Shown here: one piece after another, positions 1 to 35,350 of the stretch | Position numbering within the stretch: position 1 is the stretch's first letter | Layout of the letters: each line of letters opens with the position of its first letter | Position numbers and translations under genes: made by a program | Notes under the pieces: model-generated | The model's input: the letters and a program-made list of their open reading frames with translations, nothing else | Told to the model about the DNA's origin: nothing | Databases searched by the model: none | IMG/VR virus record: IMGVR_UViG_3300042154_001567 | Coordinates: 11,833-75,832 of that record | Reading direction: 5' to 3' (one strand) | DNA from: a virus | Length of the DNA: 64,000 nt

Positions 1-317
1 TGGAAGGAAAATGGAAAAAATATTTAGCAGCATTTAAAAATGTTGACCAAATAGTAGAAGGAATTAAGAATAACATATTTAAAAAAGAACACATTGAAGC
101 TGTAGCTACAGATAGATTTCAAGTATGCATTAAGTGTTCTTTATTTGATGCTTCTGGAGATAATTGTTTAGCTCCTGGTACACAACCATGTTGTTCAGAT
201 TGTGGATGCAGTCTAGCCTTTAAGGTGAGATCATTATCAACATCTTGTCCTAAAGGATTTTGGGATTCTTTAATGACTGAAGAATTGGAAGAAAAAATAA
301 ATAAACAAATAAAATAA
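1..317 (+). CDS. Small Cys-rich putative Zn-binding protein (5' truncated, apparently by one base)
   Basis: Not in the ORF track. Reads (M)EGKWKKYL...CIKC...C...CCSDCGCSLAFKVRSLSTSCPKGFW...KQIK*. TAA at 315-317 overlaps the next ATG (TAATG). Confidence 0.8.
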   Translation, partial: EGKWKKYLAAFKNVDQIVEGIKNNIFKKEHIEAVATDRFQVCIKCSLFDASGDNCLAPGTQPCCSDCGCSLAFKVRSLSTSCPKGFWDSLMTEELEEKINKQIK

Positions 318-1129
318 TGGCTATAATATTTAAAGAAGATGGACATACTTATGAAAGTATAGAGGAAGATAACATTGAATGGTTAAGTGTTACATCTCTT
401 GTAAGTAAGTTTAAACCTAAGTTTGATAAAGAAGGACAGGCTAAAAAATCTGCAAAGAATAAAAATTCTAAGTGGTATGGTATGACTGCAGAACAAATAA
501 TAGAAGCTTGGGATAATGAAACACAAAGAGCTGTTACTCTTGGTAACTTTTATCATAACCAAAGAGAATCTGATATGCTTGATTTTAAAACTATTGAGCG
601 TAATGGAATTGAAGTACCTATTATTAAACCACTTATAAATGATGAGGGTATAAAATTAGCACCAGAACAAAAGTTATCTGATGGTGTATATCCAGAGCAT
701 TTAGTTTATTTAAAATCTGTAGGACTTTGTGGCCAAGCAGATGTTGTAGAAGTTGTAGATGGTTATATTAATATCAATGATTACAAAACTAATAAAGAAA
801 TTAAAGAAAAAGGATATACTAATTGGGAGGGTATTACAAGTAAAATGTTTAAACCTATTAATCACTTAGATGATTGTAATTTAATGCATTATTCTTTACA
901 ACTCAGTATTTATGCGTATATTATTAAAAAGCATAACCCTTCTTTAAAGATTGGTAAACTTACAATTCAACATGTTAAGTTTAAACAGATAGGTGAAGAC
1001 GCAAACGGATATCCAATAAATGAACACTATAATGGAGAACCCATTTTAGATGAAATCAAAATGTATGAAGTTCCTTATTTAAAGGATGAAGTTAATTCAT
1101 TAATGATGTGGTTAAAAGATAATAAATAA
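317..1129 (+). CDS. PD-(D/E)XK family exonuclease
   Basis: SVTSLV at the N terminus, then E...LCGQADVV...INDYKTN and YSLQLSIYAY motifs. Sits upstream of the terminase as in crAss-like phages. Confidence 0.8.
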   Translation: MAIIFKEDGHTYESIEEDNIEWLSVTSLVSKFKPKFDKEGQAKKSAKNKNSKWYGMTAEQIIEAWDNETQRAVTLGNFYHNQRESDMLDFKTIERNGIEVPIIKPLINDEGIKLAPEQKLSDGVYPEHLVYLKSVGLCGQADVVEVVDGYININDYKTNKEIKEKGYTNWEGITSKMFKPINHLDDCNLMHYSLQLSIYAYIIKKHNPSLKIGKLTIQHVKFKQIGEDANGYPINEHYNGEPILDEIKMYEVPYLKDEVNSLMMWLKDNK

Positions 1130-1133
1130 AACT

Positions 1134-1403
1134 ATGGCAAGTATAACAATTACACAAATACAACTAGAAATAGCAACACTTCCAAATAGTCCTGCACCAC
1201 TAAATTTATATTGGAATTCATCTAGTGCATCACAAATAAGCATAGATCCTACAAAAATTATTGGAGTAGGTTATGTTTGGGATCCTACAGCAACAGTTTA
1301 TATACCAGGTATAATACAAATATATTTATCAGGTCCTTTTAATATTTATAGTACAGCTTCTTATGAATCAATAGTTGCTTATATGAATCCTACATTAACT
1401 TAA
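1134..1403 (+). CDS. Hypothetical protein
   Basis: 89-aa ORF packed tightly in the operon. Confidence 0.7.
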   Translation: MASITITQIQLEIATLPNSPAPLNLYWNSSSASQISIDPTKIIGVGYVWDPTATVYIPGIIQIYLSGPFNIYSTASYESIVAYMNPTLT

Positions 1404-1405
1404 TT

Positions 1406-1924
1406 ATGTTAGTAAGACTATTTGACATCCAGAACAGTAAGGTAATTCCATCAGAACATTGCTATGCTTTACCTTTTTTAAATGCCATTATGGAAAATTA
1501 TCCTGATAGTTATTTAAAAATCTATCAGTATATATTTTATATGAGTTGTCCTAATCCAGATATGAATCCGTTTTTTAATATACCAGAACATGAAAAAGAA
1601 GATATCATTATTGAAGAAGTTCAATTAGAAGATTCACCAGAAGATCCTAAAATAAGATATGCATTAGACATGTGTTATAAGTTATATGAAACACCTACAT
1701 TTAGAGCTTACAAAGGTATTAAATCAATGCTTGATAGATTGGCTAAATACATGGAAGTAACTGCTATTGAACATGGTAGAGATGGTAACATAAACTCTAT
1801 GGTAAATGCAGCATCTAAATTTGAGCAGATTAGACAATCATATAAAGGGGCCTTTATTGATATGAAACAAGAACAAGAAAGTTCTGTACGTGGTGGTGCA
1901 GGATTAGCATATGACCAAATATAA
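1406..1924 (+). CDS. Conserved phage protein, possible terminase small subunit
   Basis: 172 aa, helical C terminus ending SVRGGAGLAYDQI, located upstream of terL. Function inferred from position only. Confidence 0.45.
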   Translation: MLVRLFDIQNSKVIPSEHCYALPFLNAIMENYPDSYLKIYQYIFYMSCPNPDMNPFFNIPEHEKEDIIIEEVQLEDSPEDPKIRYALDMCYKLYETPTFRAYKGIKSMLDRLAKYMEVTAIEHGRDGNINSMVNAASKFEQIRQSYKGAFIDMKQEQESSVRGGAGLAYDQI

Positions 1925-1945
1925 TAAACCATTAAAATCAAAAAT

Positions 1946-2224
1946 ATGACACAACAAGTAATACCAGTAGGTAAAAAATTATTAATTAAACAAAAAAAAG
2001 CTGAAACATTTTTTAAAAACACAAGTATTATTATACCTGATGCAGCTCAAAAATTTGAAAATAAAGGTACTGTAGTAGCTGTGGGTGAGGGTATTACAGA
2101 AATCAAAATAGGTGATGAGGTTCAATATAGTGAGCATTGTTTACCAACGTCTATGATGCATGATAATGAAGAACATTTACTGATCCATGAAGGTGATGTA
2201 TTTGCAAAATTCAAGTATGTATAA
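1946..2224 (+). CDS. groES: Co-chaperonin GroES (Cpn10)
   Basis: PVGKKLLIK, IIIPD, GTVVAVGEG, IKIGDEV, LLIHEGDVFA match the Cpn10 pattern. Confidence 0.9.
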   Translation: MTQQVIPVGKKLLIKQKKAETFFKNTSIIIPDAAQKFENKGTVVAVGEGITEIKIGDEVQYSEHCLPTSMMHDNEEHLLIHEGDVFAKFKYV

Positions 2225-4403
2225 ATCCATACCTACATATAAAAATAATTCTTGGACAACTACGGAATTTGATACTAGGCAAGATTTTATAGACTATGTT
2301 TTAAGTATATTTAATGTTCCTGGGCATTATGAGTTTAATGAACTTTCTTTTAAGTTTAATGAACAAGCTCAAATATTTAATGAACAGGGGTTTTATTGTA
2401 ATAAACCATTTAGGTCTAAAGATTTTACTGACTATTGGGAAGATCAAAAAATCAAATGTAGAGAGGGAGTTATTTATGATGATGGAGATAAAAGCTGGTA
2501 TTTAACCAGAGACTACTATATGTGGTTAAACTTCTTACCTATCTTTGATAAGGAAGAAAAGAAGTATGGTTTTGCTAAAGTACGTGATGCTCAGTATCAT
2601 ATGGCTTTGTATGAACAACTTGCAGAACTACATTACAAACATTCAGCTATATTAAAGAAACGTCAGATAGCATCTTCATATTTTCATATGGGTAAAATTA
2701 TTAATACCTATTGGTTTGAGGAAGGTAGTATCTGTAAGATTGGTGCATCACTTAAAGATTTTATAAATGACAAAGGTTCATGGAAATTTTTAGATGAATA
2801 TAAAACCTTCTTAAATGAACATACTGCTTGGTATAGACCAAGTAATCCAGAAAAAGTTTTGTTATGGCAACAACAAATTGAAGTTAAAATTGGTAATAGA
2901 AAAACAGCAAGAGGATTAAAGTCAAAAATACAAGGAGGTTCATTTGAAAAAAATGCAACTACTGGAGTAGGTGGACCTTGTTCCTATTTCTTTCATGAGG
3001 AAGCCGGCATTGCTCCAAAGATGTCTGAAACATATGAGTACTTACGTCCTGCTATGTCTTCAGGTATGATTACTACAGGTATGTTTATTGCTGCTGGTTC
3101 AGTGGGAGATTTAGAACAATGTAATCCTTTGAAAGAAATGATTACTAACCCAGTAGCAAATGACATATATGCTGTAGAAACTGACCTTATTGATGCAGAT
3201 GGTACAATAGGTATGGCAGGATTATTTATTCCAGAACAATGGTCAATGCCTCCATACATTGATGACTACGGAAACTCATTAGTAAAAGAAGCTGAAGTAG
3301 CAATCCATGAAGAAAGAGAAAGATGGAAGAATGAATTAAATGGTGAACAGTTTCAATTAAGGATATCTCAAAAACCTTTAAACATTGCAGAAGCTTTTGC
3401 ATATAGAAAAGCATCTGTATTTCCACAAGGTATTCTTAGTAGACAACAAAAAAGAATTGAAGAAAAAGAATATCCTTATGAACTTATTGAATTAGATAGA
3501 GATGAGAAAGGTATATTTGCTAAAAGAACAAACAAACTTCCAATAAGCAGATTCCCTGTAGACAGGAAACAAGTGGATAAGACGGGAAGTATTGTTGTTT
3601 GGGAACGTCCAGTCAAGAGTCCAGAGTTCGGGGCTTATTACGCCTCTATTGACCCTGTATCAGAAGGCAAGACAACTACATCAGATTCCTTGTGTAGTAT
3701 TTTTGTTTATAAGAATGCAACAGAGGTTACAAGGACTATGATATCTGGAGATGTAGAACAATTTTTAGAGAAAGATAAAATTGTAGCATCTTGGTGTGGT
3801 AGATTTGATGATATTAATAAAACACATGAAAGATTAGAATTAATTATAGAATGGTATAATGCCTGGACTATAGTTGAGAATAACATATCTTTGTTTATAC
3901 AACATATGATTTCTAGAAAGAAACAAAGATATTTAGTACCTAAACAACAAATCTTATTTTTAAAAGATCTTGGTTCAAACAATACTGTTTATCAAGAATA
4001 TGGATGGAAAAATACAGGTACATTATTTAAAAGCCATTTGATATCATATGCAATTGAGTTTTTAAGAGAAGTTATAGATGAAGAAACTGATGTCAGTGGT
4101 GTTGTTACAAATCAAACATTAGGTGTTGAAAGAATACCTGATGGAATGTTAATAAAAGAAATGCTTGCATATTATCCTGGACTTAACGTGGATAGATTAG
4201 TGGCATTTGGAGCTTTAATAGCTTTTGTAAAAATACAACAATCAAACAGGGGTTTTTCAAAAAGACGTGAATCAGAAGAAAAATCTTTGGTAAATTCAGA
4301 AAATTTGTATAAATTAAAGTATAGTCCGTTTAAAAATATTGGACGTAGAGGAAACAATACTGGAAATACAATTAAAAGATCAGGCTTCAAAAATTATAAA
4401 TAA
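2217..4403 (+). CDS. terL: Terminase large subunit
   Basis: LKKRQIASS (Walker A variant), YFFHEEAG (Walker B), C-terminal nuclease IDPV...D; directly upstream of the portal. ATG 2217 preferred over 2187, which overlaps more of groES. Confidence 0.9.
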   Translation: MYKSIPTYKNNSWTTTEFDTRQDFIDYVLSIFNVPGHYEFNELSFKFNEQAQIFNEQGFYCNKPFRSKDFTDYWEDQKIKCREGVIYDDGDKSWYLTRDYYMWLNFLPIFDKEEKKYGFAKVRDAQYHMALYEQLAELHYKHSAILKKRQIASSYFHMGKIINTYWFEEGSICKIGASLKDFINDKGSWKFLDEYKTFLNEHTAWYRPSNPEKVLLWQQQIEVKIGNRKTARGLKSKIQGGSFEKNATTGVGGPCSYFFHEEAGIAPKMSETYEYLRPAMSSGMITTGMFIAAGSVGDLEQCNPLKEMITNPVANDIYAVETDLIDADGTIGMAGLFIPEQWSMPPYIDDYGNSLVKEAEVAIHEERERWKNELNGEQFQLRISQKPLNIAEAFAYRKASVFPQGILSRQQKRIEEKEYPYELIELDRDEKGIFAKRTNKLPISRFPVDRKQVDKTGSIVVWERPVKSPEFGAYYASIDPVSEGKTTTSDSLCSIFVYKNATEVTRTMISGDVEQFLEKDKIVASWCGRFDDINKTHERLELIIEWYNAWTIVENNISLFIQHMISRKKQRYLVPKQQILFLKDLGSNNTVYQEYGWKNTGTLFKSHLISYAIEFLREVIDEETDVSGVVTNQTLGVERIPDGMLIKEMLAYYPGLNVDRLVAFGALIAFVKIQQSNRGFSKRRESEEKSLVNSENLYKLKYSPFKNIGRRGNNTGNTIKRSGFKNYK

Positions 4404-4424
4404 ATTAACTAAATTAAATTTAGA

Positions 4425-7172
4425 ATGAAAGTACTTAATGCAATGCAGTTAAAGGCTGGTGCAAAAAAAACTGAAGGACCTACCTTTTCTAGTTTAACGC
4501 AACCTATTCAATTTTTACCTTATTCTGAAAAAACAGATGATTGGGCCGCTTGGAATTTAGATTGGTTAGAACTCCAAGGTATTCAATTTTTAAAACTTAA
4601 TGCCAGAAGACTTTTAAAAAATTACAAATTAGCCAAAGGAATCATAGATAAAACAGACTATATAGTTGAACCTGATAATGACTATAAAGATTTAATGGAT
4701 GTTTTAACTAAAGAAAATGATTCAGCTTTAGAACTTAAATTTTATCCTATCATCCCAAATGTAATTAATGTATTAAGTGGGGAGTTTTCTAAAAGATACA
4801 ATAAAGTACAATTCAGAGCAGTTGATGATAGATCTTATAATGAAATGCTTGAGCAAAAGAGAATGCAAGTTGAAGAAGCTTTACTTGCAGATGCTGAAAG
4901 AAATTTAGTACAAAAGATGATTCAAATGGGTTTAGATCCATCATCTGATGAAGCTAAACAACAACTTGCTCCTGAAAATATTAAAACATTACCTGAAATT
5001 GAAGACTTTTTTAGTAAGTCATATAGAAGTTCTGTAGAAGAATGGGCAACCCATCAATTAAATGTTGATGAAGAAAGATTCAAAATGCAAGAGCTTGAAG
5101 AAAGAGGCTTTAGGGATATGCTTATTGCTGATAGAGAGTTCTGGCATTTCCGTATGTTAGAAGATGATTATGATATTGAATTATGGAATCCTGTTTTAAC
5201 ATTCTACCAAAAGTCTCCAGATCAAAGATATATTTCTGACTCAGCATATGTTGGTAAAGTAGATTTGATGACAGTATCTGACGTTGTAGATAAATATGGA
5301 TATTTAATGAGCCAAGAACAATTGGAATCATTACAAAGAATTTATCCAGCAAGATCAGCTCAGTATCAAGTTAATGGATATCAAAATGATGGTTCTTACT
5401 ATGATGCAACAAGATCACACGCATGGAATACTAATTCACCAGGTTTAGCTTATAGACAATATACAAGTAATTACATGGCAGATCCTGCCAGAGGTGGTGA
5501 TATATTAAATCAAATTTTAGGAGAGAGTGAAGACTTAGCTTATTTTGGTGATGGTAATTTAATGAGAGTTTCTACAATTTATTGGAAGACTCAAAGAAAA
5601 ATTGGACATCTTACTAAGATAGAATTTGATGGTGAAGTAACTCAAGAGATAGTTGATGAAACATTTAAAGTAACAGAAAAACCTGTTTATGATACATCAA
5701 TCTTCAAAAATAAAACAAAAGATACTTTACTACAAGGAGAACATCTTGATTGGATTTGGATTAATGAAATCTGGGGTGGTGTAAAAGTAGGACCAAATGT
5801 ACCTGCTATGTGGAAAAGTTCTACAAGTAGTGAAATTAATCCTATTTATTTAGGTATTAATAGAACTAAACCGGGAAGACTACCATTCCAATTTAAAGGA
5901 AATAATTCTTTATATGGTTGCAAGTTACCTGTAGAGGGTAGAGTATTCTCTGATAGAAATACAAGATCTACTTCTTTGGTAGATTTAATGAAAGCATACC
6001 AAGTTGGATACAATATGGTTAATAATCAGATTGCTGATATCTTAATTGATGAATTAGGTACAGTAATTATGTTTGACCAGAATGCATTACCACGTCACTC
6101 AATGGGTGAAGATTGGGGTAAAAACAATTATGCCAAAGCATATGTAGCTATGAAGGATTTCCAAATGCTTCCTCTTGATACTTCAATTACTAATACAGAA
6201 AATGCAGTAAACTTCCAACACTACCAGACTCTAAACATGGAGCAAACTAGTAGATTGATGAGTAGAATACAATTAGCTAATTATTTTAAACAACAATGTT
6301 TTGATGCAATTGGTATTAACCCACAGAGATTGGGTGGTGCTGTATCAGCAGAAACAGCTACTGGAGTAATGAATGCAATGCAACAATCATATGCTCAAAC
6401 AGAAATTTATTTTGTACAGCATTCTGATCAGTTAATGCCAAGAGTACATCAAATGAGAACAGACTTAGCTCAGTTCTATTATAGTACCAATCCAAGTGTA
6501 AGATTAAGTTATATCTCTACGGAAGCAGATAAGGTAAACTTTACAATCAATGGTACAGATCTTTTATTAAGAGATTTCAATGTATTTGCTACAACTAAAA
6601 CAAATCATAGAGCTATTCTTGAACAGTTAAAGCAAATGGCATTAACTAATAACACAACAGGTGCTAGTATATATGAACTAGGTAATATTGTTAAAGCAGA
6701 TTCTATTGGTGAAGTAACAGATATCTTAAAAGATTCTGAAGCAAGAATAACAGCTCAGAGACAAGAAGAAATGCAACAACAACGTCAAATGCAAGAACAA
6801 CAGTTACAAGCACAGGCGCAGGAAGCTCAAATGAAAACACAGATGCTACAAGTAGAAGCTGAAAAGGATAGACAGAATGATATTACTATTGCTGAAATTA
6901 GAGCTGCTGGGTATGGTGCCGGTGTAGATATAAATAAAAATGAGGTAAATGATTACCAAGATGCATTAAAGGATATTCAACAAACAACTCAATATAGAGA
7001 ACAAATGAATATGAAACGTGAGGAGATGGTAAGTAAGTCATCTACAGAAGCACAGAAACTTCAAGTTGAAAGAGAAAGAATTGCAGCACAAACACAAATA
7101 GCAAAAACACAGTTAGATATAGCCATACAGAATAAAAACAAGTATGATACTAAAAAACCAAAAGATAAATAG
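4425..7172 (+). CDS. Portal protein
   Basis: 915 aa; LKFYPIIPNVINVLSGE and GINPQRLG motifs; Q/E-rich coiled-coil C terminus; follows terL. Confidence 0.88.
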   Translation: MKVLNAMQLKAGAKKTEGPTFSSLTQPIQFLPYSEKTDDWAAWNLDWLELQGIQFLKLNARRLLKNYKLAKGIIDKTDYIVEPDNDYKDLMDVLTKENDSALELKFYPIIPNVINVLSGEFSKRYNKVQFRAVDDRSYNEMLEQKRMQVEEALLADAERNLVQKMIQMGLDPSSDEAKQQLAPENIKTLPEIEDFFSKSYRSSVEEWATHQLNVDEERFKMQELEERGFRDMLIADREFWHFRMLEDDYDIELWNPVLTFYQKSPDQRYISDSAYVGKVDLMTVSDVVDKYGYLMSQEQLESLQRIYPARSAQYQVNGYQNDGSYYDATRSHAWNTNSPGLAYRQYTSNYMADPARGGDILNQILGESEDLAYFGDGNLMRVSTIYWKTQRKIGHLTKIEFDGEVTQEIVDETFKVTEKPVYDTSIFKNKTKDTLLQGEHLDWIWINEIWGGVKVGPNVPAMWKSSTSSEINPIYLGINRTKPGRLPFQFKGNNSLYGCKLPVEGRVFSDRNTRSTSLVDLMKAYQVGYNMVNNQIADILIDELGTVIMFDQNALPRHSMGEDWGKNNYAKAYVAMKDFQMLPLDTSITNTENAVNFQHYQTLNMEQTSRLMSRIQLANYFKQQCFDAIGINPQRLGGAVSAETATGVMNAMQQSYAQTEIYFVQHSDQLMPRVHQMRTDLAQFYYSTNPSVRLSYISTEADKVNFTINGTDLLLRDFNVFATTKTNHRAILEQLKQMALTNNTTGASIYELGNIVKADSIGEVTDILKDSEARITAQRQEEMQQQRQMQEQQLQAQAQEAQMKTQMLQVEAEKDRQNDITIAEIRAAGYGAGVDINKNEVNDYQDALKDIQQTTQYREQMNMKREEMVSKSSTEAQKLQVERERIAAQTQIAKTQLDIAIQNKNKYDTKKPKDK

Positions 7173-7245: not shown

Positions 7246-7258
7246 ATTAAAGATTTAC

Positions 7259-7266
7259 TATATTAT
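7259..7266 (+). promoter_or_regulatory. TATATTAT putative phage late promoter element
   Basis: The same octamer recurs in intergenic gaps at 12859, 14475 and 31103. Confidence 0.55.
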
Positions 7267-7301
7267 ATATATAAAGTATTAATTATTAAACCAACAATAA
7301 G

Positions 7302-8600
7302 ATGAGTACCAAAAACAACGCAATGAGTAGTAATGTAGAGACTTTAGATATTGATTTAGATACAATATTCAATGCAGCACCCAGCGGTGATGACATGACT
7401 TTGCCATCTGGAAAAGATACTAAAGCTACAAATAACATTTTTTCAGGAATAAATAAAAAAGCAGATTTTTCATTTGCTGATCCAGATGCAGATGATGCAG
7501 ATAATTTAACTGATAAAGGTAAAACTCCAACATCAAGTGCAGATCTTCTTGCAGATGATGAAGATGAGACTACACCTAAACCAACTAAAGAAGACGGTAA
7601 AAGCATTCTTGAAAGTTTAGGTGATGAAGATGATGAAGAAAAAAAAGAAACTAGAGGTAGAAAATCTATTTCTGGAATTTCAGATGTCTTCTCAAAAATG
7701 ATTAAAGAAGATAAATTAGTACCTTTTGATGATGAAAAATCTTTTGATGAATATACAGCAAAGGATTGGGAAGAATTAATTGAAGCTAATTTGGAAGAAA
7801 AAGCTAATCAAGTAAGACGTGAAACACCTAAACAGTTTTTTGCTAGCTTACCTGAAGAGTTACAAATTGCAGCAAGATACGTGGCAGATGGTGGTACTGA
7901 CTTAAAAGGTTTGTTTTCTACTTTAGGTCAAGTAGAAGAAACTAAGGATTTAGATATTAAATCTGAAAGAGATCAAGAGATTATTATTAAAGAGTATTTA
8001 AATGCTACTGGTTATGGTACTTCTGATGAGATTGCTGAAGAAATTGAAATTTGGAAAGATTTAGGAAAACTTGAACAACAAGCTGCTAAGTTTAAACCAA
8101 AGTTGGATAAGATGGCAGAACAAATTGTTATCAAGAAAGTGCAAGAGCAACAACTAAAACAAAAACAACAAGAACAAGCATCTAAAGCTTATATGCAAAA
8201 TGTATATGATACTTTAAAAGATGGCAACTTGGGAGACATTAAAGTTGATAGAAAAACTCAAGCAATGTTGTATAATGGTTTAGTTCAACCAAGTTATCCT
8301 TCAGTAAGTGGAAGGAATACAAATCTATTAGGACATCTATTAGAGAAGTATCAATTTGTAGAACCAAATTATAAATTAATATCAGAAGCATTATGGTTAT
8401 TGCAAGATCCAGAAGGATATAAAGCAAAGATCATGGATAAAGGAGCTCAACAAAGTATTGAGCAAACAGTAAGAAAACTAAAAACAGAACAGGGTAACCA
8501 TAGTTCAAGTTCTCTTGGGATTCAAGATAAAGATGAAGAAACAAGAAAACAACCAACTAAAAAATTACCTAGAACCAATAACATTTTCAAAAGGATTTAA
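7302..8600 (+). CDS. Putative capsid scaffolding protein
   Basis: Highly acidic N-terminal half and helical C-terminal half; lies between portal and MCP. Confidence 0.7.
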   Translation: MSTKNNAMSSNVETLDIDLDTIFNAAPSGDDMTLPSGKDTKATNNIFSGINKKADFSFADPDADDADNLTDKGKTPTSSADLLADDEDETTPKPTKEDGKSILESLGDEDDEEKKETRGRKSISGISDVFSKMIKEDKLVPFDDEKSFDEYTAKDWEELIEANLEEKANQVRRETPKQFFASLPEELQIAARYVADGGTDLKGLFSTLGQVEETKDLDIKSERDQEIIIKEYLNATGYGTSDEIAEEIEIWKDLGKLEQQAAKFKPKLDKMAEQIVIKKVQEQQLKQKQQEQASKAYMQNVYDTLKDGNLGDIKVDRKTQAMLYNGLVQPSYPSVSGRNTNLLGHLLEKYQFVEPNYKLISEALWLLQDPEGYKAKIMDKGAQQSIEQTVRKLKTEQGNHSSSSLGIQDKDEETRKQPTKKLPRTNNIFKRI

Positions 8601-8645: not shown

Positions 8646-10262
8646 ATGGCAACTCCAGTATTAAATAATGGGATTTTCCTAAGAGACACTAGCTACAAAG
8701 CAAGTTCTCATGTAGATTCTTATCACTTGACTCAGATGCTTGGTTCAGCAGAACCAATGGATATGGGACCAATTGATTTATGGGCAATGACTCAAAAAGT
8801 TGAAATGCCTCTTTATCAAATGGCTTCATTTGGTGGAAAGAACACTATCATGGTGGACAATGCTCGTGGTGAGTACAAATGGCAAACTCCTATTGCGCAA
8901 GATCTTCCATACATTGTGGCAGACATTGAACCAGCTAACGCTTCTAAAGGTGTAGATGGTACAACATTCAAAATTAAAATTTCTAAAAGAACATTTGGAC
9001 ATGGTGATATTATCACTTATGACAAGTACAATGGTTTAGAACTTTACATCACAGCTGATGATATCATCCCTGCTGGTGACGGTTTTATCTATACTGTTCA
9101 ATTAGTAAACAACAACAACGTAGCTAGCTTAGATAATAAGTATTTAGCTAAAGGTACTAAATTCTTCAGAAAAGGTTCTGCAAGAGGTGAGTACGGAGAA
9201 AGATTTTCTGACATTGAAACAGGTTCTGGTTTCCGTGAATTCTACAACTTTGTAGGAGGAGCTGAAGCACACGTACATTATTCTATTTCTAGCCGTGCTG
9301 ATCTTATGATCAAAGGTGGTTTGAATGCAGATGGTACTGTACCTGTAACTGAAATCTGGAGAAACTTTGGTGCTAACAATGATCCTGCTGTACCTAGTAT
9401 TGAAGGATTAATTGCTAACATGGGTAAAGCTGGTGCAAGAGAAGCATTTGAAAATGGTTCATTGACTAGAACATTTATCACTAACATGGAAGCTGCGCAT
9501 TTATCAAAAATTGCTTCTGACATTGAAACTTACTTAATGTGGGGTAAAGGTGGTAGAATCAAACAAGATGGTCCAGATGATATTAGATTATCTGTGGGAT
9601 TATGGGCACAGTTGGATAACTCATTCAAAAGAGTTTACAACAAGTCTTCTTTCACACTTGATATGTTTAAATCTGAATTGTATAACTTCTACCAAGGTAA
9701 AGTTGAGTTCAAAGGTCCAGATCCACAAAGATCACTTGTTGTTCAAACAGGTATTGGTGGTATGCAATTGATCAACAAAGCTATTGCTGATGAAGTATAT
9801 GGTTCTGGTTTAGTACAAAATGCTAGTGATATTGGAGCTGTTAAAGGTTCTGGAATGGATCTAGATTATGGATTTGCTTACACTTCATTTACTATTCCTT
9901 TCTTAGCTAACGTTAAGTTTGTATTGAACCCAGCGTTTGATAACTTGAATACTAATGATATTGAGAATCCATTAATTGATGGTCGTCCATTAAGTTCTTA
10001 TAGCTTTATTATCTTTGACGTAACAGATGAAGGAAATGATAACATCCATTTATTGAAATTATCTTGGGATAATCAATTGAAATGGTTCTACCAAAATGGA
10101 ACTATGGATTATATGGGAAGAACTCAAGGTTTTGCATCTACAGGTAACTTTAATGGATACCGTGTAATGATGTCACAAACTATGCCTGCTATCTGGGTTA
10201 AAGATCCAACTAAAGTCTTAAAAATTGTAATGAGAAACCCAATTACTGGTGGATCATTCTAA
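8646..10262 (+). CDS. Major capsid protein (crAss-like)
   Basis: 538 aa after the scaffold, biased codon usage, followed by a strong terminator; YLMWGKGG and IWVKDPTK segments. Confidence 0.85.
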   Translation: MATPVLNNGIFLRDTSYKASSHVDSYHLTQMLGSAEPMDMGPIDLWAMTQKVEMPLYQMASFGGKNTIMVDNARGEYKWQTPIAQDLPYIVADIEPANASKGVDGTTFKIKISKRTFGHGDIITYDKYNGLELYITADDIIPAGDGFIYTVQLVNNNNVASLDNKYLAKGTKFFRKGSARGEYGERFSDIETGSGFREFYNFVGGAEAHVHYSISSRADLMIKGGLNADGTVPVTEIWRNFGANNDPAVPSIEGLIANMGKAGAREAFENGSLTRTFITNMEAAHLSKIASDIETYLMWGKGGRIKQDGPDDIRLSVGLWAQLDNSFKRVYNKSSFTLDMFKSELYNFYQGKVEFKGPDPQRSLVVQTGIGGMQLINKAIADEVYGSGLVQNASDIGAVKGSGMDLDYGFAYTSFTIPFLANVKFVLNPAFDNLNTNDIENPLIDGRPLSSYSFIIFDVTDEGNDNIHLLKLSWDNQLKWFYQNGTMDYMGRTQGFASTGNFNGYRVMMSQTMPAIWVKDPTKVLKIVMRNPITGGSF

Positions 10263-10328: not shown

Positions 10329-10529
10329 ATGGCACTAGATATAAAAAAAGCAAATAAAACATATGAGTTTTCAAACTTAAATGTTTCTGAGATTATTGCT
10401 TCAAAAGCTGTAGGTAAAGATATATTGGTTAGAAATTATGTAGATAATGCTGCAGCAAAAGCAGTAGGATTAGTTAATGGAGATTTGTATCACACAGATG
10501 GAGTATTAAAAATTGTTTACGCGGCTTAA
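10329..10529 (+). CDS. Small putative capsid decoration or fibre-tip protein
   Basis: 66 aa; C-terminal NYVDNAAAKAVGLVNGDLYHTDGVLKIV resembles short virion-fibre end modules. Confidence 0.6.
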   Translation: MALDIKKANKTYEFSNLNVSEIIASKAVGKDILVRNYVDNAAAKAVGLVNGDLYHTDGVLKIVYAA

Positions 10530-10613
10530 GTCAAATAAACTGGAGTAAGAATAAAAAACTTACTTTAGAAATATTAATAATAATAATTTGTACATAATTA
10601 TGTACTTTTGACT
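10529..10613 (+). ncRNA. Predicted four-way-junction (cloverleaf-like) RNA element
   Basis: P1 10529-10535/10607-10613; P2 10540-10549/10559-10568; P3 10569-10576/10581-10589; P4 10590-10595/10600-10605. Confidence 0.45.
10603..10610 (+). promoter_or_regulatory. Bacteroidota -7 promoter element TACTTTTG, overlapped by the palindrome GTACATAATTATGTAC (10590-10605)
   Basis: Exact TAnnTTTG match 43 nt upstream of ATG 10653. Confidence 0.45.
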
Positions 10614-10652
10614 ATGAAAAAACAATTATTAAATTTTAAAGAAAACCAAATT

Positions 10653-11669
10653 ATGAATGATTACACAATTGTAGAAAAGTATCAGCAAACAAAAAATCAA
10701 ACTATTGCTATACGTCCCTATTTTAACTCTTCTAAAGAGAACATGGGTTTAGAGCATTATGGATTAGCTTTGCATGATGGAGTATTTCATGAAGAAACAT
10801 TAGCTTGTTTAGAAATGAATGGAGTTAAACGTTATGTTACAGGATTAAATGAATTTGCTCCTGATGTAAAAATGTTACCTCCAAAAGAAAAAGAAGCTAA
10901 AGTAAAAGAAATTAGAACTATTGTTGCTCAATTAGAAGCAGAATTAGCAGCTAATGTTGTTGCTATTGATGACAAAGATTTTTGGAATAAGCTTACAGTA
11001 ATGAAGCCTGATAATTCAAAATTTTGGGATAAGATTAGTTTAAGATGTGGTAATGATCCTGTTTTTTTAGATCCACAAAAAGATCCTTATGACTTAATTA
11101 AATTACATGCTATTCACGCAGGAGGTTTTTCTATTGTAGCAAAATCATTAAGAGAAGCAAGAGAATCAGGTAATCCACCTAAATTCTATCTTGATACAAT
11201 GGAAGAAACATTAAGTACTAGAACAGAACTTAGTAAATTAAAAAATAAAGCATTAGTTGAACTACAAAAAATGTATGATTCAAATGCTTCAAAATTAATG
11301 TATGTTGCTAAAATCTGTGATGCTGATAGTGTACAGTATGTAAAAAATACACCTAATGATATTCTTTATGAAAACATGGATGAATACATTCATGGAAATG
11401 GAGCTGAATCTTCTAAGAAAAGAGCTGCTTCACAATTCTTAGAAATATCTGGGTTATCAATGGAAGAATTAAAAATAAGAGCTTTAATTAAAGACTCTTT
11501 ATATTATAGATTTATTACTACTAAAGCTGGAGGTTGGATTGAACCAATTGATAGTGGAATAAGATTAGGTAAATCACCATCTGAATGTTTGGAATTTTTA
11601 AAGAATCCAGAGAATGAAGAAACATTGATGGCATTACTTAATAAAGTAGAGCCATACTGGAACTCTTAA
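10653..11669 (+). CDS. Conserved crAss-like protein downstream of the MCP (head assembly module)
   Basis: Synteny. ATG 10653 has an A-rich leader and is preferred over TTG 10608. Confidence 0.65.
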   Translation: MNDYTIVEKYQQTKNQTIAIRPYFNSSKENMGLEHYGLALHDGVFHEETLACLEMNGVKRYVTGLNEFAPDVKMLPPKEKEAKVKEIRTIVAQLEAELAANVVAIDDKDFWNKLTVMKPDNSKFWDKISLRCGNDPVFLDPQKDPYDLIKLHAIHAGGFSIVAKSLREARESGNPPKFYLDTMEETLSTRTELSKLKNKALVELQKMYDSNASKLMYVAKICDADSVQYVKNTPNDILYENMDEYIHGNGAESSKKRAASQFLEISGLSMEELKIRALIKDSLYYRFITTKAGGWIEPIDSGIRLGKSPSECLEFLKNPENEETLMALLNKVEPYWNS

Positions 11670-15084: not shown

Positions 15085-15126
15085 TAGTGTATTATAAATA
15101 TTTAAATAAACCAAAAATAAATTATT

Positions 15127-15345
15127 ATGGATTGTGCAAATTGTAATAAAACGTTTACTTGTGGTTGTCAAAAAGCATTTGATGATCAAGGAATAGCCAT
15201 ATGTAAAACATGTGTTAATGAATGGTCTAATAAAAAATTAAGTAATCAAGCACCTTCAAAAGAATTGCCAGTAAAAGAATTGTCAACAAGAGATTTAAAT
15301 TTAGAATTAGCCACTCAACAAATTAGAGATCTGAGAAATAAATAA
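15127..15345 (+). CDS. Small Cys-rich (CxxC...CGC...CxxC) Zn-binding protein
   Basis: MDCANCNKTFTCGCQK...ICKTC. Confidence 0.7.
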   Translation: MDCANCNKTFTCGCQKAFDDQGIAICKTCVNEWSNKKLSNQAPSKELPVKELSTRDLNLELATQQIRDLRNK

Positions 15346-29599: not shown

Positions 29600-30058
29600 A
29601 TGAATCAAAAGAAAAAAGCTACACTAAAGCTATCTCAAATCATGTCTTTAGAGGCAGAGATAGGCGGTTTACAAAACCAACAAACAGGTGAATCAATTTT
29701 AAAAGGCTTATTAAGTCATAAAATGCCAATGATTGCCAAGTTTAAATTAAAAATGTTACTTAACTCTTTGTCAACTATTAAGAAGGCAAATGATGAGTTA
29801 AGGGAAGAGTTGATTAAAGAGTATGGTACGGAAGGTGAGAACGGTTCTATTTCAATCCCCATGTATGTAGATGCAGAGGCAGAAGTAAAAGAGTTTAACC
29901 CTAAGTACGTTGAGTTCGCTAACAAAATGGAAGAGCTATTAGCTAAAGAAATTGAGTTTGAATTTGAAGAAATTTCTATGGAAGAGTTGAAAGACCTAGA
30001 TACTGAGGAGTCATATCCTGCGTTCATGGACTTGCTTATCTTAGTAATGGAAAAGTAA
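29600..30058 (+). CDS. Acidic helical protein, putative tail-fibre chaperone
   Basis: REELIKEYG...F...MEELL..EIE pattern; location after the fibres. Confidence 0.55.
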   Translation: MNQKKKATLKLSQIMSLEAEIGGLQNQQTGESILKGLLSHKMPMIAKFKLKMLLNSLSTIKKANDELREELIKEYGTEGENGSISIPMYVDAEAEVKEFNPKYVEFANKMEELLAKEIEFEFEEISMEELKDLDTEESYPAFMDLLILVMEK

Positions 30059-30720: not shown

Positions 30721-30745
30721 TAAACAATTTAATAAACCAATAAAA

Positions 30746-33436: not shown

Positions 33437-33997
33437 ATGGCATGTAATTGTTCAAAATGTAGTAGTAATTGTGGTTGTGCTGATACAGCATTAACAAGTC
33501 CATGTACATATACTGACTGTAGTGTTGGTAGTGAAAGATGTGATGATATACAATGTGCAGAATGTGTTAGTTATTGTGGAACCTCTTTTCAAATAGGTTC
33601 TGCAGGGTCATTATTACAAATAGCTAAAGGTGAAAGACTTGATTCTATTATTCAAAAATTTGCTATGATAGTATCTAATGGTTTAGGAGCATGTACATCT
33701 AATGATTTACCACATGATCCATTCAATGTATATGCGGGTGTTATTACAAGTAACAGTGTATCAGTATTATGGAATGGTACTTGGAGTGGAAGCACTGGAG
33801 TAAACATTTATTATAATACTCAGATAGCTCCTACTACGTGGGTTTTAGCTAATCCTGTACCAATTGTGCCAACCATATTTAACTTTACAATAACAAACCT
33901 TTTGTCTACTACAGCATATAAAGTAAAAGTGGTAAATGTGGGTAACTCATCATCATGTAAACCAATTGAAATACTATTTTCTACACTAGCAGTATAA
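33437..33997 (+). CDS. Cys-rich structural protein with a C-terminal FN3-like domain
   Basis: CVSYCG...GERLDSIIQK resembles the N terminus of the previous gene; ITNLLSTTAYKVKV is FN3-like. Confidence 0.65.
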   Translation: MACNCSKCSSNCGCADTALTSPCTYTDCSVGSERCDDIQCAECVSYCGTSFQIGSAGSLLQIAKGERLDSIIQKFAMIVSNGLGACTSNDLPHDPFNVYAGVITSNSVSVLWNGTWSGSTGVNIYYNTQIAPTTWVLANPVPIVPTIFNFTITNLLSTTAYKVKVVNVGNSSSCKPIEILFSTLAV

Positions 33998-34007
33998 CAT
34001 TAAAAAA

Positions 34008-34083
34008 CAACAATAGTGGCGGTTTGTTGGTTTTCTGTCACAGGCGTTGCAAGAGGCTGGGGAAACCCAGTCTCTTTTTTTTT
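34008..34083 (+). ncRNA. Candidate small RNA: hairpin with U/G-rich loop plus terminator
   Basis: CAAC/GTTG and GTGGCGG/CTGTCAC stems enclose the loop TTTGTTGGTTTT; GC-rich island in AT-rich DNA. Confidence 0.55.
34051..34083 (+). terminator. Rho-independent terminator
   Basis: AAGAGGCTGGG-GAAA-CCCAGTCTCTT followed by a T run. Confidence 0.9.
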
Positions 34084-34144
34084 AAATTAATCTTTAATAT
34101 TAAAAAAAAAATTTACATTTACACAATTAATTTAAAAATGTTCT

Positions 34145-35350
34145 ATGAGTTATTTAAAAAATAAAATACTTGAGTCATTAAAATGGAAAAAATCACCAGC
34201 TTATTGTGCTTCAAAACTAGGAATATCAGAAGAAGAATACATTAAAATTAAAGATCAGATTCTGAGTAAATTTAAAAAAGTATATAAAAAACAAGATTCT
34301 AAAATAAGTGAGTCTGTAGATTTAGAAAAGGGTGAATCAACAATTTCAGGTTCTTTTGCATATGAACCAAAATCAGCAGAAGAGATAATTAAACTTTTAA
34401 AAATTGATACAAAAGTTTGGAAGTTATCACAATATTGGAATAAACAAATGGGAGACCATTGGAGAGTTTCAGCTTTAATAACTAAAATTAAAGAAAATAC
34501 AAAAGAAGATTTATTAATAAATTTATTAAACAATTGGAAACCAAAGGTTTATAAAATAGATACTATAAAAAAACCCTATGACTCTAATAAAGCAGATGTA
34601 TGCGGGGTAATATCTTTACAGGATATTCATTTTGGAAAACAAGGAAATGAAACCATTGATAAAGATTTTGAAAATACAATAAAAAACTTATTAAACAAAG
34701 GTACTGCATCACATAATATTAAAGTATTGTACTTTGTGGTTGGTGGTGACTTAATCAATATGGATACCTTTAATGGTTCAACAACAAGTGGAACACCTCT
34801 TGATAACTGTATGTCTGCAACGGATGCTTATATGCAGGCTTTTGATGCAATGCATTGGGCTATAAATTATATAAAACAATATTGTGAAGAACTTGTAGTG
34901 GTATATGTTCCGGGTAATCATGATAGATTATCCTCTCATCATTTGGTGCATGCCCTATCTAAATCTATTTATAATGATGGAGATATAGAATGGGATATAA
35001 AGTATGAAGAAAGAAAAGTGCATGTATGGCATAATAATTTTAATGCATTTGAGCATGGTGATAAATCAAGTAAAAACAATCCTTTAATATATGCATCAGA
35101 ATACCCAAAAGAGTGGGGTAGCACAACGAATAGGACTCTATATAAGGGTCACATCCATACTGACAGAAAAGTAGAATACATGACATCTAATGAGACGGCA
35201 GGATTTATAGAGAAGACACTTCCTAGTTTAGGTAAAACAGACTATTATCACTATAGCAATAAATATACTGGCAATAGAAGATCAGGTAAATTAGAATTAC
35301 AAGATCCAATTCTAGGCATCATATGTGAATTAACTCATCAATCAGTATAA
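34145..35350 (+). CDS. Calcineurin-like metallophosphoesterase
   Basis: QDIHFG, GGDLIN, PGNHD, EHGD and GHIH motifs. Confidence 0.85.
   Translation: MSYLKNKILESLKWKKSPAYCASKLGISEEEYIKIKDQILSKFKKVYKKQDSKISESVDLEKGESTISGSFAYEPKSAEEIIKLLKIDTKVWKLSQYWNKQMGDHWRVSALITKIKENTKEDLLINLLNNWKPKVYKIDTIKKPYDSNKADVCGVISLQDIHFGKQGNETIDKDFENTIKNLLNKGTASHNIKVLYFVVGGDLINMDTFNGSTTSGTPLDNCMSATDAYMQAFDAMHWAINYIKQYCEELVVVYVPGNHDRLSSHHLVHALSKSIYNDGDIEWDIKYEERKVHVWHNNFNAFEHGDKSSKNNPLIYASEYPKEWGSTTNRTLYKGHIHTDRKVEYMTSNETAGFIEKTLPSLGKTDYYHYSNKYTGNRRSGKLELQDPILGIICELTHQSV

Follow-up and report, generated by a model that had tools for sequence, protein, structure and literature searches.

A conserved hairpin at the end of the tail-fibre genes of a crAss-like phage is a candidate antisense RNA against a leader box of virion genes

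Downstream of a tail gene of an uncultured virus lies a hairpin whose loop is complementary to a short word found just before the start codons of several genes of the same virus. Is this hairpin an RNA that acts on those genes, or does it serve some other function at the end of its own transcript? The window, i.e. the whole 64,000-nt stretch that was analysed, corresponds to positions 11833-75832 of the 75.8-kb viral contig IMGVR_UViG_3300042154_001567. The contig was estimated by CheckV to be ~65% complete and represents about two-thirds of a genome, complete relatives being 113-122 kb long. The source virus is an uncultured freshwater crAss-like phage. It has a major capsid protein of the Crassvirus type (8646-10262) and a P22-like portal that scored under the Pfam cut-off (23.8 bits vs 26.1), and an open frame of >3,650 aa occupies the right end of the window. 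All genes of the window are carried by the plus strand, and no tRNAs were found in the 64 kb. The phage DNA was found in lake-water metagenomes, and relatives were present in both marine (TARA) and freshwater assemblies. Among the GenBank phages, we did not find a cultured relative, either by DNA or by three of the phage's proteins.

The gene upstream of the hairpin (33437-33997, plus strand) encodes a Cys-rich tail-like protein of 186 aa with a weak PHROG match to a major tail protein. The hairpin is located in its 3′UTR and starts 19 nt after the stop codon, a TAA that ends at 33997. On the plus strand, an A-rich 5′ flank with a conserved (A)ACAAC (34002-34015) leads into the 5′ arm of the inner stem, GUGGCGG (34016-34022), which pairs with the 3′ arm CUGUCAC (34035-34041) through 7 bp, including two G·U pairs. 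The arms enclose a 12-nt loop, UUUGUUGGUUUU (DNA TTTGTTGGTTTT, 34023-34034), with GUUGGUU as the proposed seed core. A linker with a nearly invariant CGUUG(G) follows (34042-34050), in which the alignment columns G44-G47 are at least 90% conserved. The element ends with an intrinsic terminator (34051-34085) that consists of an 11-bp stem with a GAAA loop (stem-loop 34051-34076) and a U-tract, the T-run reaching 34085. In addition, CAAC in the flank (34008-34011) can pair with GTTG in the linker (34046-34049) as an outer helix.

The coordinates that the preliminary description had given for the hairpin, the loop, the terminator and the stop codon were all correct when checked on the sequence, and its fold was reproduced with ViennaRNA. 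The 106-nt region folded as first described at -30.6 kcal/mol (z = -4.1), and none of 200 shuffled sequences was as stable. The calculated cost of opening the loop was 0.12 kcal/mol. The element is single-copy; extra copies are absent from the genome. We also noticed that the linker 34042-34050 repeats the GUUGG of the loop (as CGUUGG) and that this repeat is nearly invariant in all relatives.

Homologues of both flanking genes were used to collect 136 viral loci and 80 metagenome loci. The hairpin was found between the two flanking genes in essentially all loci that were sufficiently long, in this clade without exception after the homologue of the 186-aa gene, and a hairpin at the end of the tail-fibre genes is common to hundreds of relatives. 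Among 60 distinct sequences, the inner stem paired in 97.9% of the cells of the alignment. Double-sided changes were observed in five of its seven pairs; for example, the closing G-C was replaced by A-U and a middle A-U by G-C. Its covariation score was not reached by any of 500 shuffles. About 22% of the paired cells of the inner stem were G·U or U·G, which would be A·C mismatches on the opposite strand. This share of G·U pairs indicates that selection acts on the plus strand, i.e. the transcribed (RNA) strand. The terminator stem also covaries freely among relatives. The loop stayed the same while its surroundings drifted: 66 of the 67 aligned sequences shared it, as did 77 of 78 further metagenome loci, and it was kept in relatives whose tail protein is down to 47% identical. 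Judged from these alignments, the hairpin is a plus-strand RNA structure under selection. The preliminary description had proposed that relatives be searched for covarying stems around an invariant loop, and both were found. The outer helix is an unproven candidate: its sequence is conserved, its pairs gave no covariation, and a few relatives (L056 and L075) do not have it.

Downstream of the terminator, a TAnnTTT(G/A) box was found in 60 of 62 distinct relatives, 14-45 nt (mostly ~20-30 nt) before the next ATG. This box is of the Bacteroidota -7 promoter type. In the window it is TACATTTA (34114-34121, plus strand), 23 nt before the ATG of the next operon at 34145. As a terminator is followed by a conserved promoter box, the transcription unit of the tail-fibre genes ends at the hairpin.

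We scanned 185,579 species genomes with a pattern of the element and obtained 67 matches. In four of them the match was the real element, in each case on a phage contig assigned to a MAG (Lacinutrix, Flavobacteriales and two gammaproteobacterial bins). At most, a Flavobacterium-type host is hinted at by the Lacinutrix and Flavobacteriales bins that contain real copies. A weak match in Ochrovirga was rejected as a host copy, since it is an ordinary inverted repeat, and a repeat common to Winogradskyella and Lutibacter was rejected because it lacks the hairpin. No Rfam family reached its gathering score in the 64 kb, where the best sub-threshold matches had at most 23 bits. At the element itself there were only weak matches at chance level, such as sraA (23 bits) and AgvB (19.7 bits, with a gathering score of 56). 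A literature search with the loop sequence returned unrelated primers only.

The preliminary description had listed complementary sites at 7288-7297, 10640-10649, 15108-15114, 30734-30744 and 1926-1931, and all of them are present on the plus strand. The principal predicted target is the box AAACCAACAA (7288-7297) in the leader of a scaffold-like gene (ATG 7302), with a hybrid energy of -11.7 kcal/mol and a net energy of -10.0 kcal/mol. The second box, which we place at 10642-10650 (AAAACCAAA), precedes the ATG at 10653 of a virion-module protein of 338 aa with unknown function, and the predicted pairing is -7.3 kcal/mol. At the start of the leader of this gene (10529-10652) stand the word GTACTTTTGAC, which is conserved, and a structured region; the box lies just 3′ of the latter. 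AAACCAA at 15108-15114, before the ATG at 15127 of a 72-aa CxxC protein, pairs weakly in this genome (-6.5 kcal/mol). The site before ATG 30746 (AAACCAATAAA, 30734-30744) is a predicted clade-specific one, with -10.7 kcal/mol and one G·U pair. The site in the groES leader (1926-1931) is weak in this genome.

AAACCAA occurred in 5 of 65 leaders (-30 to -1), vs 0.71 in shuffles (P ~0.0005), so the enrichment over shuffled leaders that had been suggested as a check was found. In the leaders of five genomes, AACCAA and AAACCA were the most enriched abundant hexamers. The energies alone were less telling. The duplexes are short and A/U-rich. When the real loop was compared with 219 permuted loops of the same composition in this genome, it beat 93% of them (P ~0.07), which is marginal, and in the same test the leaders were no better targets than coding windows. 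As the single-genome test of pairing is marginal, the signal becomes clear only with comparative data. Across the whole genome, the word complementary to the loop had 18 one-mismatch matches vs 12.3 expected, with no excess outside leaders. A perfect complement of the 12-nt loop (AAAACCAACAAA) lies at 29673-29684, 75 nt into the CDS 29600-30058. Relatives do not keep it, and it was rejected as a target, being probably a chance match.

We fetched ten relatives whole or in part and mapped the orthologues. The core of the box, AACCAAC, which is the complement of the loop, lies ~13 to 4 nt before the ATG at 7302. AACCAA was found in all 41 distinct close leaders of the scaffold-like gene, its position being -13 in 31 leaders and never outside the range -14 to -11. 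The spacer between the box and the promoter varied from 11 to >20 nt. Because the spacing is fixed to the ATG and not to the promoter, the box is an mRNA signal. In seven genomes, the scaffold-like gene had a mean loop duplex of -11.8 kcal/mol vs -8.3 kcal/mol for the next gene family. When the 219 permuted loops were applied to the seven genomes, the only ones that matched the real loop were shifted versions keeping GUUGG.

The other boxes were kept to different degrees. AAACCAA was retained before gene 10653 in 45 of 45 distinct relatives and before gene 15127 in 12 of 12 close relatives, and distant orthologues of the latter also have it. The box before 30746 was kept by close relatives only and is lost at 69% identity and beyond, and the groES site varies by lineage. 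Of the target list first proposed, gene 7302 is thus robust; 10653 and 15127 keep the tag, although they pair weakly in this genome; 30746 holds for close relatives only, and groES is weak and lineage-variable. The labels 'scaffold' and 'chaperones' that had been attached to the targets were positional and had no family match. The product of 7302 has no PHROG match, and in the protein atlas only a sub-threshold lead to scaffolding proteins (0.82) was obtained. Its gene sits between the portal and the major capsid protein, and the product is acidic in its N-terminal part, helical in the middle and basic in the tail. We call it scaffold-like, a name suggested by this position and composition.

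The scaffold-like protein family is very large, with 5,738 scored relatives and, at 50% identity, 539 clusters. Viral contigs were scanned by alignment with distant members as seeds, which gave 80 homologues that were 36-44% identical to the distant query protein. AACCAAC stood just before the ATG in ~59 of 63 distinct leaders of these distant lineages, often in tandem. The hairpin and the terminator followed the fibre genes in four of five long distant contigs. The distant stems were unlike that of the window (GUCGCAG/CUGUGGC, GUCGCAG/CUGUGAC and GUCAUG/CAUGAC) and the loops were UUUGUUGGUUU (twice), A-UUUGUUGGUU-CAA and UUAAGUUGGUUUA, all of which kept the core GUUGGUU. In two distant genomes that were read whole (G014 and G015), the orthologues of 7302, 10653 and 15127 carry full AACCAAC boxes, and in one of them groES does too. 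Leaders with AACCAAC numbered 6 of 133 and 6 of 130 in these genomes, vs 0.47 and 0.27 in shuffles. Before gene 10653, the box of distant lineages is a full AACCAAC and is often doubled. Given the tandem boxes in some distant leaders and the GUUGG repeat in the linker, a contact at two sites is conceivable.

We also searched for compensatory changes between loop and box in the variant loops (L135, L136, L516, G014 and G017) and did not find any; the contig of L516 is too short to include the scaffold-like gene. Four variant loops were UUUGUUGGUUCU, UUUGUUGGUUAC, A-UUUGUUGGUU-CAA and UUAAGUUGGUUUA. For three of the four, the scaffold-like leader of the same genome showed no matching change in the flanks, the tag alone being comparable in the second of these three. 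The cores GUUGGUU and AACCAAC did not vary anywhere, and the drift in the flanks of the loop was not matched by that in the flanks of the box. The co-occurrence and co-conservation of hairpin and box across these genomes are strong.

In every lineage examined, the leader word that is most conserved is exactly complementary to the invariant loop, and RNA-RNA pairing is the simplest interpretation of this match. The proposal of the preliminary description, that the loop is antisense to a leader tag of phage genes, turned out to be the best-supported reading: the tag stands at a nearly fixed distance from the ATG in orthologues, including those of very distant relatives. The hairpin is, in our view, a strong candidate, as yet unproven, for an RNA by which the phage controls the translation of three of its virion genes. 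In the form that we favour, with a probability of roughly 0.55, it would be an antisense RNA borne by a 3′UTR and most likely repressing the tagged virion genes.

The mechanism may be pictured as follows. The transcript of the tail-fibre operon would end in a structured RNA of ~80 nt, composed of the stem, the 12-nt G/U-rich loop, the linker and the terminator. The loop core GUUGGUU would pair with the A/C-rich AACCAAC box ~13 to 4 nt upstream of certain starts, i.e. that of the scaffold-like gene 7302 and, more weakly, those of 10653 and 15127. A loop of 12 nt cannot form a full helix of 10-12 bp without strain. In the leader of 7302, the predicted pairing site extends from -15 to -4, inside the stretch that the 30S subunit must bind. 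Repression is proposed because the pairing would cover the stretch where the ribosome loads on leaders of the Bacteroidota type, which have no Shine-Dalgarno (SD) sequence. Pairing would thus most likely block initiation, and the tagged genes would be turned down once the transcripts of the tail genes accumulate. The existence of several targets would explain the frozen seed. We infer that loop and box would pair in vivo, that the RNA would either be released or act as part of the 3′UTR, and that the effect would be repressive. At the hairpin, we identified neither a processing site nor an internal promoter for a free sRNA. A precedent for the proposed action exists in Bacteroides, where the sRNA GibS represses SD-less mRNAs via pairing at the translation initiation region (PMC7366714).

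The alternative that fares best is that the hairpin is a protein-binding RNA site, concerned with termination read-through or with the processing or stability of the tail operon mRNA, and that AACCAAC is a separate translation signal whose complementarity to the loop is incidental. The invariance of both cores without compensatory change would fit this, as if a protein or the ribosome read each of them. The position of the hairpin, directly before a terminator and a new promoter, is also as expected, and the second GUUGG in the linker is conserved though its pairing partner is sometimes absent. However, this explanation leaves aside why, in every lineage examined, the loop holds an exact complement of 8-12 nt to the most enriched and most conserved leader motif. 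By a rough estimate from leader composition, a 10-nt complement in any leader of this genome has a chance of ~0.02. Nor did we identify a candidate binding protein. We regard it as rather unlikely, though it deserves to be kept in mind.

It is also conceivable that the box is a phage-private translation enhancer and that the hairpin RNA serves as an adaptor, an mRNA stabiliser or a decoy instead of a repressor. The box is located where Bacteroidota ribosomes contact A-rich, SD-less leaders; its frequent tandem duplication in distant lineages is enhancer-like; and the tagged products are probably needed in quantity. Yet no earlier case of an RNA adaptor acting in bacterial initiation is known to us. 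UUGGUU, the complement of the box, is absent from the 16S rRNA of two Flavobacteriaceae, which argues against 16S rRNA mimicry by the loop; AACCAA is absent from the same two rRNAs as well. Moreover, pairing at -13 to -4 normally blocks 30S loading (PMC7366714). An enhancer with a helper RNA thus appears doubtful. A bolder version, which we judge improbable, joins the two elements into a private code of the phage for translation by SD-less Bacteroidota ribosomes, with the box as a phage-specific loading signal. The hairpin RNA, made together with the tail genes, would be a trans switch that bridges or withholds the tagged mRNAs, and thereby a timer that couples head and tail assembly by contacts between RNAs and is conserved in whole crAss-like families.

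Alternatively, a DNA-binding protein, for instance a late regulator, might recognise the shared word as double-stranded DNA, in one orientation in the leaders and in the opposite one in the hairpin. A word of 8-12 bp at several promoter-proximal places and in one intergenic region would suit such a protein, for which the strand is indifferent. Against this, the arms that flank the loop covary, and with 22% G·U their pairing works only as plus-strand RNA. In addition, the distance of the box is kept to the ATG and not to the promoter, and the word is without excess outside leaders (the 18 one-mismatch matches vs 12.3 expected given above). We consider a DNA site very improbable. A tandem terminator or a 3′-end stabilising hairpin with no sequence-specific role would suit the end of an operon, beside a canonical terminator, but is hardly credible, since a stabiliser needs no invariant 12-nt loop and here the stem and the true terminator drift while the loop is fixed.

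Several further readings were rejected. A plain intrinsic terminator fits the second hairpin (34051-34085) and not the first, which has no U-tract and an invariant loop. A DNA hairpin promoter of the N4 type was rejected on account of the 12-nt loop (not 3 nt), the single copy, the position at the end of a late operon and the G·U pairs in the stem. A replication origin was set aside as there is no turn of the GC skew. Similarly, none of a DGR hairpin, a stimulator of stop-codon read-through, a replication origin and a packaging site explains an invariant loop on a covarying plus-strand stem.

An antisense RNA of the kind we favour would resemble several known systems. Base-pairing sRNAs derived from 3′UTRs, of the CpxQ, SroC, DapZ and MicL type, are the closest in arrangement. 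Like them, the phage element stands directly after a stop codon and shares the intrinsic terminator of its parent mRNA, an arrangement that is the same in all relatives, and it has a conserved accessible seed complementary to the initiation regions of several mRNAs transcribed elsewhere. It differs in being encoded by a lytic phage and aimed, as we propose, at the phage's own virion genes, and in having its seed in a hairpin loop instead of a linear stretch. To our knowledge, the host phylum, Bacteroidota, has neither Hfq nor ProQ, unlike the hosts of CpxQ-type sRNAs.

In the c4 antisense RNA of phages P1 and P7 (RF01695), the loops pair with short boxes where ribosomes load on genes of the same phage, and the candidate described here would likewise be a phage-encoded small RNA directed against boxes at such sites of its own phage. 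There is no sequence or Rfam match between the two, and c4 was not among the sub-threshold hits. c4 precedes its targets within one operon and regulates immunity, whereas the present RNA ends a tail operon, and its candidate targets (7288, 10642 and 15108) are found 19-27 kb upstream of the hairpin, in other transcription units with promoters of their own. GcvB of enterobacteria (RF00022) uses a G/U-rich seed against C/A-rich leader elements of several mRNAs. The phage loop is also a G/U-rich seed facing C/A-rich boxes just upstream of several starts, and as in GcvB, multiple targets would explain a frozen seed. However, sequence and structure are unrelated, there is no Rfam match, the RNA would be a phage and not a host RNA, and Hfq is absent. 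The sole echo of GcvB was the sub-threshold match to the anti-GcvB RNA AgvB mentioned above (19.7 bits vs 56). GibS of Bacteroides thetaiotaomicron, which represses SD-less Bacteroidota mRNAs by pairing with their initiation regions, is the precedent in the phylum (PMC7366714). Unlike the phage element, GibS is encoded by the host in an intergenic region and has a long linear seed at its 5′ end, and the two have no homology. GibS is associated with RbpB (PMC11697453).

The kind of RNA proposed here, a phage antisense RNA or a seed RNA borne by a 3′UTR, is therefore already known, and the family is new to Rfam. Our literature search found no paper that combined Crassvirales with sRNA or described this hairpin family, and a paper on the transcription of phi14:2 made no mention of such an element. 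CrAss-like phages are among the most abundant gut and aquatic viruses. Hairpin and tag were found together in every sampled clade of this very large uncultured group. Should the pairing prove real, this would be the first regulatory RNA of Crassvirales known to be conserved and to act in trans, and a rare case of a lytic phage setting the dose of its own head-assembly proteins by RNA. An 8-nt seed and an 8-nt box might also offer a simple handle on the control of initiation in a phylum that does without Shine-Dalgarno pairing.

Two further words drew our attention near gene starts. In the leftward, early-looking small genes to the left of the window (bases 1-6500 of the contig, G000) and in their orthologues in four relatives (G004, G006, G008 and G010), TTAACC(C/T)TT(T)AA recurs 15-30 nt before the ATG. 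It may mark early promoters or starts, perhaps those used by the virion RNA polymerase. The other word is a promoter-like box, TTATATT(R)TATATATAAG, that stands before the scaffold-like gene (7255-7275) and before gene 14512. Relatives keep this box, which is distinct from the -7-type box TATATTTG before 30746 and the similar TATATTTA before 12921.
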